Of a DNA stretch of 20,000 nt, positions 3,499 through 19,937 are shown in pieces. How positions within the stretch are numbered: the stretch's first letter is position 1; each line of letters opens with the position of its first letter. The position numbers and the translations under genes are program-made. The stretch covers positions 49,741 through 69,740 of the forward strand of contig PS015388.1 of assembly GCA_048213135.1 (NCBI GenBank). The letters run 5' to 3'. Under the pieces are notes generated by a model. The model was not told the origin of the DNA. It saw nothing but the letters and a program-made list of their open reading frames with translations, and ran no database searches. Source of the stretch: Reclinomonas americana ATCC 50394. Its lineage: Eukaryota.

Positions 3499-6400
3499 GT
3501 ACGCATGTCCATCTCTATATCATCACAATACCGCACTTTGCACTCACTCTTGTCACGCCAGATGTCGCCGCTGCGGCTGGCGACCGAGAGTGGTGGCGCA
3601 CCGTCGTCGGCGCCGTCATGTCCACGATTTTCGTCGTTTCACTGATGTCGTACTGGTGCTGCTCGCGACGCCCGCCATCGCCGGCTGCGCCGCACACCAA
3701 GCCGAATGACGCCGCTCCCGTGGAGGGCGTGGAGAAGGTGTCCGTCATGGCTTCCGAGAGCACCCCCGGCGCCGATGGTACCGGTCCGGCGCGCCGACAG
3801 GCGGCGCGCACGGTCGTCTCCGGCAGCGATGCGGGTGATGTGGCGTCATGGGAGGCGGTGAGTGGGCGAGGAGGCGAAGAGTTCATCGGGCTGTCATGCT
3901 TCCCAAACGTCGCACGATGATTCGCTTCTGTTCCCCGTTGTTTCCTCTTTCCTGTTGCTTCGAACTAGGGGGTTGTTGGTTCTTCACCTTCAGATCTTTC
4001 TCAATCTCACACACTCACTCACTCACTCTGTCTGTCTGTCTGCCTCTCTCTCTCTCTCTCTCTCTCTCTCTCTCTCTCTCTCTCTCTCNNNNNNNNNNNN
4101 NNNNNNNNCCCCCATTCTCTCCCCCATTCTCTCCCCCATTCTCTCCCCCATTCTCTCCCCCATTCTCTTCCCCATTCTCTCCCCCCTTCCTTTCCCATCC
4201 TCCCCTTTCCCCTTTTTTTCACCTTTTTCCATTTCAGCCCACCCGCGCCGGCTCTGGCAACTCCCGCCGCGAATCCGAAGACATGCCACGCCTCGCCCTC
4301 GCTGGCGACATCTTCACTTTCGGCAACCCGTCGTCGCCCCCCGCCGACCCACAATCCCCGCAGCAGCGCACCGACGGCGACAATGTGCGCTCGCTCTCCC
4401 GCGTGCTGCGTGAGACCCTCAACGACAGCGCCCGCTTCTCGGAGGTGGTCGAGCGGCACTTTCGCTCGCAGGATGTCGACGCGTCGGGCCAGCTGGAGCT
4501 GCCGGAGTTCCGCAACGTTGAGTGTGGTTGTGTTGATTTCTCTTCTTTTTTTGCGAGTTCTCACCTGTGCGCAGATGATGCGCGAGTACTTTGAGCATCT
4601 CCACATTCCCGAGAGCCAATTGCCGTCGGACGAGGAGCTGGCTGAAGGTCTCGTGTAGCTGCAGCACGGACATGAGCGACAATGAGGTGCTGATTTTGTG
4701 TGTCGCCAGCGTTTCACGAGCTGGACCAGGACCGCACTGGCTCCGTGTCGGTCGATGAGTTCCGACCGTACATGCGACGAGTTGAGTGAGTTATTGCATA
4801 GCTGCTGTCGATTGCTCGACTGACGCGTCGTGTAGGCACTGGAGGTGGCCACGAAGCACTTTGAGGACCTCGAGGACCACATGCGCTCGATTCAGGAGTG
4901 GTACGAGACCGATCGGTCTTTCCCACCTCCACCCGAGCCGTCGACGGCCGCAGCCGTGCGCAGCTTGCTGCCGCGCACACCGCGAGTTCTTGTTGCGTGG
5001 AGTGGAGGGGGCAGTAGAGTTATTCAGTAGCTAATTTGGTGTCTTTGCAGGGAGTCGCCAGCTCAGCTCGCTCACAGCCTGTGCGTGTCACATATATTGA
5101 TGGGTGTCATCTGTACGATACTCACGCTGTCTCGCTGCAGATCGGATTCACTGTCGTCACGTGGACTGGCCGTGCCGTTCGTGTGAACGTGCCAGGTCAG
5201 TGTTTGGGATGGATGATGGAAAGCACAAGTGCTTGGTTGTTCTCTCTCTCTCTCTCTCTCNNNNNNNNNNNNNNNNNNNNNNNNNNNNNNNNNNNNNNNN
5301 NNNNNNNNNNNNNNNNNNNNNNNNNNNNNNNNNNNNNNNNNNNNNNNNNNNNNNNNNNNNNNNNNNNNNNNNNNNNNNNNNNNNNNNNNNNNNNNNNNNN
5401 NNNNNNNNNNNNNNNNNNNNNNNNNNNNNNNNNNNNNNNNNNNNNNNNNNNNNNNNNNNNNNNNNNNNNNNNNNNNNNNNNNNNNNNNNNNCGTACGTCG
5501 TACGTCGGTCGTCGTCGTCGTCGTCGTACGTACGGTACGTACGGTACGTCGTAGGTTGGTAGGTAGGTAGTAGTAGTAGTAGTACGACGTACGTACGTGT
5601 TCGTTCGTTCTCTCTCTCTCTCTCTCTCTCTCTCTCTCTCTCTCTCTCTCTCTCTCTCTCTCTGTCTGTCTGTCTGTCTGTCTGTCTGTCTGTCTGTCTG
5701 TCTGTCTGTCTGTAATTTGTTCTACGGAAATCCTCATGTTTGTATCGTGGGTTGTGACTCGCTCTCAGTCGCTGGACTCTTGTTGATTATCATATTCCTT
5801 TCTTCTTCGTCTTCTCTCTTACTCTTTCTTTCTCTCTCTCTCTCATTCCTTATCCCTTTGTTAGGTTTGCTCACAACTTCATTCCCCTTCCCCGCCCGTT
5901 CCCCCTCCCGTTCACCCTCCCCTTCCATCTCCCCTCCTTCTTTTCCCCTTCCCCCCTCCCTCCCCTTTTCAGGCGACTCCCCACTCACCCGCGTCCGCGT
6001 ACTGGTCGCCGAGGGCGAGGACCTCCCCGAGCGCGCCTCCTCCTCCGTGTCCCTGACTCTCGGCTCCACGGTCTTTGCGCCGACGGAGAATGGCGCCGTC
6101 GTCGATCTCGGCATCACACCCAACGCAGAGCTCGTCGCGGTTTGTGCTCCCCTTTCCTGCATATCCCCGTGCCCCTTCTCACTCGCGCTATCAATCCAGG
6201 CACTGCAACCCATCTCTGTGGAGGTCACTGCGCCGTCCGGAGCCAAGCACCGTCTCGACAACCTGCGACGTTGCGTTCACTTGCTGAGACACGATTTGCC
6301 GATCATCACTCACTTTCTTGTCGTCGGCACAGTCACCGACGCAGTCATTGTGCTCAAGAAAGCCGTTTGCGAGGCCGAGCATGTTCCCATCCAGGCAGCC

Positions 6401-19937: not shown

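Follow-up and report, generated by a model that had tools for sequence, protein, structure and literature searches.

What does a cell make from a gene in which ubiquitin-like (UBL) domains follow one another head to tail and none of them ends in Gly-Gly? Domains of this family are known to serve as tags or, singly, as docking modules. The question is raised by 20,000 nucleotides of the genome of Reclinomonas americana ATCC 50394 (contig PS015388.1, positions 49,741 to 69,740 of the forward strand; this whole stretch is called the window below), where a gene on the plus strand encodes an array of UBL units of two types, A and B. We propose that this one nuclear gene specifies a single uncut protein, in which a probable EF-hand head is followed by at least 24 alternating UBLs, and that this protein serves as a structural rod, tether or spacer. 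Taken whole, the proposal has in our judgement about an even chance of being right.

Gene structure and the two types of unit

How is the gene read? The window is eukaryotic in character, with a G+C content of about 55–60% outside the gaps, microsatellites, seven runs of N and short introns. Three-frame translations placed the motifs of both unit types on the plus strand throughout, bar one small contig. At each junction all frame-compatible GT–AG introns were enumerated, and those that preserved unit length and had a usual acceptor were kept. The result is a multi-exon gene on the plus strand with 45 GT–AG introns (median 66 nt, range 53–271 nt outside the gaps), the acceptor being CAG in 39, TAG in five and AAG in one. 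Once spliced, it yields 24 in-frame ubiquitin-like units, 12 of type A and 12 of type B, in whole codons and without stops. The units are 74–92 residues long and each adjoins the next directly in the spliced frame, without a spacer. The gene continues past the end of the window. Among the donors, GTTGCG is found at 11 of the 45 introns and GTTGAG at five (introns across 4517–18106), and no GTTGCG donor follows an exon that ends in G.

The units run in the order A1 B1 A2 B2 B3 A3 B4 A4 (gap) B5 A5 B6 A6 B7 A7 B8 A8 B9 A9 B10 A10 (gap), and continue with an inverted B–A pair (gap), then B, A and the beginning of another B (gap); a near-copy of these last three closes the row. The order that the first-pass annotation had given, A B A B B A B A and so on with a single B–B break, is reproduced by the spliced model, and the break, between B2 and B3, lies within gap-free sequence (7999–8709). 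Is B2 a B/A hybrid, which would explain the break? We rejected this idea: the C-terminal half of B2 scores 12.9 bits with the B profile as against 3.5 bits with the A profile, and its A-like features are confined to the last residue (Ala) and the phase-0 intron that follows. Loss of one A unit, or the gain or duplication of one B unit, is possible.

Other details of that annotation fared unevenly. The end that it gave for the array, 19937, coincides with the point where the first exon of the last B unit stops. The array is indeed present at 5141, although coding does not start there but upstream, at about 4283. Unit 5 (B3) does have a long first exon, which in our model occupies 8381–8475 instead of ending at 8477. 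Two peptides that look like coding sequence are intronic, namely the 'RCV' closing the first parts of B units, which is the donor GTTGCGT read in frame, and the 'ECWLE' after B1.

The intron pattern recurs every two units, one B and one A. In both types the internal intron lies at an identical site, just before the residue that the profile alignment pairs with Pro19 of ubiquitin; it is in phase 1 in all A units that have it and in 11 of the 12 B units, Am alone being without it. All ten A-to-B junctions that lie in sequence have a phase-0 intron. The B-to-A junctions have an intron in eight cases and none in three, and in those of B3/A3, B6/A6 and B10/A10 the second half of the B unit and the first half of the next A unit are fused in a single exon. 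An exon pattern whose period is two units fits a multiplication of two-unit blocks.

How distinct are the two types? The motif TW.G[RK] carries its Trp in all 12 A units and the motif P[ST]G[KR] its Pro in 10 of the 12 B units (Ser in B3 and Bx), so that both start motifs noted at first pass are present. Eleven A units possess the 'xW.E' start, A1 being preceded by the head linker, and its Trp is present in 10 of them (A7 has Phe). This is unit position 2, which in 12 of 12 B units is occupied by Leu, Ile or Val. Mean identity is 32% among A units, 28% among B units and 21% between the types, with single pairs spanning 14–55%. Neighbouring units are on average 21.5% identical (maximum 33%, n = 20), units two apart 27.7%. 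Relative to A, type B carries an additional residue behind strand 2 and a further two in the loop that follows strand 3. In a maximum-likelihood tree of the 24 units a single branch splits A from B (support 92/87), as had been anticipated, and none of 500 label shuffles did as well. Hidden Markov models (HMMs) built with one unit left out in turn gave the N-terminal half of 24/24 units its best match with the profile of its own type. When the two profiles are aligned with hhalign, A and B match at 98.6% (E 1.2e-15) over 75 columns, the whole length. We conclude from this profile comparison that B is homologous to A.

The unit ends differ from those of polyubiquitin. In all 24 units the C-terminus is free of GG and LRGG, and the Arg-Gly-Gly ending of polyubiquitin does not occur; GG dipeptides are found inside seven units, never at a unit end. 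The final residue is Ala in 12 of 12 A units and T, A, V, S, M, G, I or W in B units. The sequence supports the view that selection has kept the A and B types apart. The first-pass annotation had noted that the units abut and that none ends in GG or LRGG, and had argued that the gene is not a modifier precursor; with the span of identities and the maintained separation of the types added to the missing Gly-Gly ends, that argument appears sound.

Fold of the units

Do both types adopt the ubiquitin fold? Am lacks an internal intron and can therefore be analysed as one intact piece. It matched Pfam family PF00240 with E 4.4e-6 (26.8 bits, above the cut-off of 25.4). This was the one hit among three exon peptides tested; the other two, the B3 second half with the A3 start and the A1 second half, are part-domains and gave none. 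The AlphaFold2 (AF2) model of Am has a mean predicted local distance difference test score (pLDDT) of 93.8 and a predicted template modelling score (pTM) of 0.82, and its elements follow the order β–β–α–β–β–3/10–β. Foldseek returned at least 500 matches in the PDB at E ≤ 0.001, headed by ubiquitin, ISG15 and SUMO (E about 2e-6, template modelling (TM) score 0.72–0.78, root-mean-square deviation about 2 Å). In the ESM Atlas the matches were generic ubiquitin-family clusters only, with scores of 0.88–0.91. We conclude that the A type, as modelled, has the ubiquitin (β-grasp) fold.

For type B we have evidence of an indirect kind. Aligned to ubiquitin with hhalign, A reaches 93.4% and B 92.2%, with residues 3–42/45 covered. 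B1 is the only B unit that can be read as one open reading frame (ORF), with its intron retained, and its model has a pLDDT of 72.8 overall and below 50 over residues 1–19. From the helix to strand 5 this read-through model is confident; the intron-coded residues are placed as a strand, and the true β1–β2 hairpin is left unplaced; for the N-terminal half of B the model is of little use. Its best Foldseek match has E 0.21, and the highest-ranking matches are all UBLs.

Where do the characteristic residues lie? By profile alignment Leu8 of ubiquitin, in the β1–β2 turn, is matched in A by the Trp of the TW.GR motif and in B by the Pro of PSGK, while the profile alignment and the Am model put the Trp of 'xW.E' three residues before strand β1, in an N-terminal segment modelled in Am at a pLDDT of about 92. 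The two Trp residues of an A unit thus stand at opposite ends of a six-residue strand and cannot share one interface. The first-pass annotation had taken a B–A di-UBL for the structural unit, its two Trp packing the interface; the two-unit period finds backing in the intron positions and fused exons, whereas the packing of both Trp in one interface is at odds with the topology. The column aligned with Ile44, which in ubiquitin belongs to the Leu8–Ile44–Val70 recognition patch, holds Val or Ile in A and Leu, Ile, Met or Val in B, the strand register being uncertain and the C-terminal half unreliably aligned. In the strand register of the Am model this column may be a core position.

The N-terminal head

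What precedes the array? No start codon is found in the first A exon, whose frame runs upstream to an acceptor at 5050. Four more exons with like donors, joined by GT–AG junctions, extend the frame back to an ATG at 4283; this start codon is uncertain, the frame being open upstream to the N gap at 4108. The spliced reading contains two loops of the type D-x-D-x-[ST]-G...E, about 35 residues apart. The second, in exon 4712–4780, matches EF-hand_6 with E 4.1e-5 (23.4 bits, cut-off 25) and EF-hand_1 with E 6.9e-5 (22.6 bits, cut-off 25.4). That it stays just under the Pfam cut-offs is as expected, because the exon encodes only 23 residues. The first loop, at residues 47–78 of exon 1, gave weak matches in the PDB, nearly all of the calmodulin type (best E 0.024), and no Pfam hit; the remaining head exons had no significant match in Pfam. 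Since both loops look canonical, and since one has near-cut-off and the other weak matches, we regard the head as a probable EF-hand pair, and as putatively calcium-binding.

Relatives and the origin of the alternation

Does the gene have relatives? A HMMER search with Am against 1.84 billion representative sequences gave 405 hits at E ≤ 0.001, mostly polyubiquitins. A minority are long ubiquitin-family arrays from metagenomes that lack GG ends (P0004, P0007, P0009/P0151 and P0062). The only close relative is P0068, of 200 residues from a contig of 903 nt, which is 47% identical, scores 78.8 bits with the A profile, and also carries a piece like the second half of a B unit upstream of its A unit. 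P0068 might come from the same species, or from the same gene outside the window, and it is therefore not counted as an independent organism. Its A-like unit is uninterrupted at the site of the internal intron, as is Am, and groups with Am, A2, A4 and A6; the shared lack suggests that the intron was lost long ago, or else that P0068 represents a further unit of this gene. A word-indexed search for homologues among longer proteins found none for exon 8500–8781 among 341 candidates and none for Am among 147 scored, which is weak evidence, and none of 593 pattern matches of Am in metagenome contigs was confirmed.

Named organisms were reached by a search with P0007, which led to diatom proteins: a 'hypothetical protein' of Mayamaea pseudoterrestris (P0155, 1588 residues), a 'Polyubiquitin (Fragment)' of Seminavis robusta (P0160) and a Nitzschia gene model (P0153). 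Like the window gene, the diatom and metagenomic arrays are long, head-to-tail, GG-less and free of spacers, and P0155, P0160, P0062 and part of P0009 have a two-type alternation of their own. Unlike the window gene, P0155 and P0160 have no EF-hand family in their precomputed Pfam lists, and the window units are much farther from ubiquitin than are the diatom units, as the single Pfam hit among three exon peptides reflects. P0160 also has long coiled-coil-like stretches rich in Glu, Ala, Arg and Lys between its blocks of units. The names that databases attach to poly-UBL proteins ('Polyubiquitin (Fragment)', 'ubiquitin C', 'archaellin') are clearly automatic and misleading. A literature search of partial coverage gave no description of long non-cleaved UBL arrays or of these diatom relatives.

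Is the alternation of A and B the same as that of the diatoms? Trees of the relatives were rooted with ubiquitin as outgroup; they rest on 78 columns and contain several long branches, and we take them as a best estimate of limited resolution. The 24 window units and the A unit of P0068 form one clade, with support of 100/98 in one tree and 97/91 in the tree that includes diatom units. This clade lies within the diatom β type plus the P0007 lineage, and the diatom α type is a separate clade; the Trp-bearing units of P0062, P0009 and P0004 form yet another (98/94). Since A and B of the window both fall inside the diatom β type, their alternation is not the α/β alternation of the diatoms and arose independently. 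The A units are monophyletic within this clade (95/88), their nearest neighbours being B3 and B10, so that A seems to be derived from a B-like unit. If the tree is right, two-type alternation and a Trp at the Leu8 position have, on this best estimate, evolved more than once. Sister pairs within the array (B4/Bm with A4/Am, and B8/B9 with A7/A8) agree with a multiplication of two-unit blocks, the block register differing between these cases. To judge by its sequence, the window gene belongs to the ubiquitin superfamily and is built like the diatom arrays, without being their type-for-type orthologue.

Rod or docking scaffold?

How might such a protein work? By analogy with other tandem-domain proteins, the array would form a semi-rigid rod, tether or spacer. 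W2 would brace the junction B|A, whereas W12 would do so at the place from which the C-terminal strand of A sets off towards the next B. The linkers, no longer than those of polyubiquitin, would be fixed by the hydrophobic residue at position 2 (Trp in A; Leu, Ile or Val in B) in place of a flexible Arg-Gly-Gly, and with the junctions so fixed the length of the array would be set by the number of units. The head would make attachment, or conformation, responsive to Ca2+. As for history, the A type would have arisen from a B-like unit within the lineage, after which two-unit blocks were multiplied. Alternation would keep neighbours unlike, at about 21% identity, and might thereby limit misfolding between them; according to the abstract of one paper, tandem domains that adjoin one another diverge, and probably do so because misfolding is thereby avoided (PMC4660218).

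The main rival to the rod is a multivalent docking scaffold, an uncut array that presents two UBL faces so as to concentrate or order partners, with the EF-hand head as regulator; the partners would be ubiquitin- or UBL-binding domains, receptors of the p97 or proteasome type, or a partner specific to the lineage. We consider this possible but rather unlikely. Integral UBL domains are commonly docking modules, as in USP7, parkin and ubiquilin, and the same use here would agree with two features of the array: the exposed Leu8 equivalent is type-specific (Trp in every A unit, Pro in all but two B units), and a hydrophobic residue is kept in the Ile44-aligned column. On the other hand, at identities of 14–55% most surface positions are not kept, and the Ile44 column may belong to the core in the Am model. 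The evidence fits the rod equally well, and both uses could hold for one protein.

The rod itself has points against it. Its function is argued by analogy, for a gene that runs off the window. Splicing, protein size and the absence of processing are all predictions from sequence. The B fold is without a confident whole-domain model, given the low pLDDT at the start of the read-through model and its best Foldseek match; the conserved hydrophobic Ile44 column could mark a binding face instead of a core residue; and the first EF-hand loop has weak structural matches and none in Pfam. Finally, the assembly is poor here, containing seven N gaps, an inverted contig and a pair of near-identical contigs, and the number of units and part of their order may be wrong.

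Integrity of the assembly

How far does the array depend on the assembly? A contig of 645 bp between two N gaps (15962–16606) holds a complete B–A pair that reads on the minus strand, against the direction of the remainder of the gene; this is most simply an error of orientation in scaffolding, a real inversion being the alternative. Further units may be hidden in the seven gaps. Most of the gaps adjoin microsatellites, which probably caused the assembly to break there; long CT-rich and dinucleotide (CA, GA) tracts of low complexity occur at 1–1400, at 4109–4240 and in the flanks of N gaps.

Two contigs in series are nearly the same: 17280–18240 and 19050–20000 are 96.5% identical over 949 aligned bases, with small indels in introns. 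Either a recent tandem duplication produced them as paralogues, or two haplotypes have been put one after the other. Over 576 coding bases the copies (17325–18178 and 19087–19939) differ by 13 synonymous and two non-synonymous codon changes which, set against 146.7 synonymous and 429.3 non-synonymous sites, amount to about 0.10 and 0.005 differences per site. Paralogues or haplotypes, this excess of synonymous change means that the protein is under strong purifying selection.

Might the array be mostly a product of assembly, a shorter gene inflated or reordered by scaffolding, or in part a decaying pseudogene? The gaps, the misoriented contig and the 96.5% identical tandem contigs, possibly two haplotypes, speak for it. 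But twenty units lie in two gap-poor stretches (5141–9766 and 10526–15193) with unbroken frames, the units differ too much among themselves to have come from collapsed or duplicated reads, and the preponderance of synonymous differences points to selection on both near-identical contigs. We hold this explanation to be improbable.

The coordinates of the head and of all units are collected in table 1. Upstream of the gene, on the plus strand at about 1380–3920, are ORF pieces with repeated β-propeller-like motifs and a single hydrophobic stretch, which seem to belong to a separate gene of several exons; three pieces tested gave no significant Pfam match.

Table 1. Coordinates in the window of the N-terminal head and the UBL units, with exons in the order of the spliced reading.
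Feature	Extent	Exons	Strand	Remarks
Head		4283-4516, 4575-4647, 4710-4780, 4836-4991, 5051-5195	+	five exons; ~190 residues, two putative EF-hand loops, linker into A1
A1	5141..6139	...5141-5195, 5973-6139	+	N gap inside intron
B1	6200..6505	6200-6269, 6333-6505	+	63-nt intron in frame
A2	6566..7776	6566-6632, 7610-7776	+	N gap inside intron
B2	7999..8309	7999-8065, 8137-8309	+	next unit also B
B3	8381..8709	8381-8475, 8529-8709	+	long first exon; second half in one exon with A3 start
A3	8710..9011	8710-8776, 8842-9011	+	
B4	9087..9393	9087-9156, 9215-9393	+	
A4	9462..9766	9462-9528, 9600-9766	+	then N gap 9956-10305
B5	10526..11033	10526-10595, 10867-11033	+	
A5	11095..11398	11095-11164, 11232-11398	+	
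B6	11481..11815	11481-11550, 11619-11815	+	exon common to A6 start
A6	11816..12131	11816-11882, 11953-12131	+	
B7	12358..12683	12358-12427, 12502-12683	+	
A7	12765..13055	12765-12831, 12892-13055	+	
B8	13123..13431	13123-13192, 13259-13431	+	
A8	13495..13782	13495-13561, 13619-13782	+	
B9	13851..14148	13851-13920, 13976-14148	+	
A9	14215..14523	14215-14281, 14354-14523	+	
B10	14584..14888	14584-14653, 14713-14888	+	exon common to A10 start
A10	14889..15193	14889-14955, 15024-15193	+	then N gap 15253-15961
Bm (inverted contig)	16294..16605	16533-16605, 16294-16466	-	
Am (inverted contig)	15993..16226		-	sole unit without internal intron; Pfam, AF2, Foldseek
Bx	17325..17681	17325-17406, 17491-17681	+	
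Ax	17759..18042	17759-17825, 17879-18042	+	
By, first exon of further B unit	18107..18176		+	then N gap 18241-19049
Second copy of Bx, Ax and By start	19087..19937	19087-19168, 19253-19443, 19520-19586, 19640-19803, 19868-19937	+	96.5% DNA identity to 17280-18240

Implications

What would follow if the array is a rod? A wider and more tentative proposal, which we think doubtful as it stands, is that ubiquitin folds were recruited at least twice, here and in diatoms, as alternating two-type rods, an undescribed cytoskeletal or spacer class of protists. Here the EF-hand head would turn the rod into a calcium-switched ruler, tether or spring, the Trp or Pro at the Leu8 position and the linker residue locking the junctions. 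If this were true, the ubiquitin fold would have a third use, that of a repeat with a structural role comparable to the Ig domains of titin. Separate origins of alternation here and in diatoms would point to a design rule for tandem domains, that neighbours be unlike, and would supply natural material for its test. The EF-hand head offers a concrete experimental handle in its Ca2+ dependence. For annotation, the labels 'polyubiquitin' and 'hypothetical' on the diatom relatives are misleading.

Comparison with known systems

Polyubiquitin precursors offer one comparison. As in UBI4, UBB and UBC, and as in M1-linked chains, the folds of the array stand head to tail with a period of about 76–82 residues, and the highest-ranking Foldseek matches of Am include linear di- and tetra-ubiquitin. 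Unlike polyubiquitin, the array has no GG ends, its units are far from near-identical, it alternates two types with Trp or Pro for Leu8, it has introns in all units but one, and it begins with a head that is not a UBL. Neither of the two defining features that we tested was found, and on its sequence the gene is not a polyubiquitin precursor. Could it be a precursor of another kind, from which a dedicated protease frees UBLs or di-UBLs at unit or two-unit boundaries? The layout and spacing recall polyubiquitin, and the Ala that ends each A unit right before the next unit could be read as a cleavage motif, but activation of the E1 type needs a C-terminal Gly-Gly, which no unit has, the units are highly divergent where modifier precursors are homogenised, the codon of the terminal Ala (GCG or GCT) is always at a splice junction and may reflect exon-end context, and no protease domain lies between the abutting units, so that we think this the least probable explanation of all. 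Ciliate BUBL genes, which Dassa et al. are said to have described in 2004, reportedly join polyubiquitin-like units to intein-like autoprocessing domains; within the window no Hint or BIL domain lies between units, the 3' end of the gene being beyond it.

ISG15 and FAT10 consist of two domains, terminate in (LR)GG and undergo conjugation. They resemble the window gene in setting two different UBL domains in tandem, and ISG15 superposes on Am with a TM score of 0.77–0.78; they differ from it in that the pair is here repeated at least 12 times, without GG. The window gene is not a modifier of the ISG15/FAT10 type.

USP7 is a larger protein with several non-cleaved UBLs in a row, which published papers term tandem UBL domains. 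Its five C-terminal UBLs are attached to an enzyme, whereas the window gene has at least 24 such domains and no catalytic domain is seen in the window.

In its working, and in its working only, the array resembles the Ig/Fn3 arrays of titin, which are likewise long rows of small β-rich domains, joined by short linkers and sharing little identity with the domains next to them. The fold is different and there is no homology, and load bearing is carried over by analogy only. Such a role is conceivable because N-to-C-linked ubiquitin is reportedly strong mechanically and resists pulling, as Carrion-Vazquez et al. are said to have found in 2003. Among integral tandem UBL proteins, the window gene is set apart by its scale, its independently evolved alternation and its probable EF-hand head.

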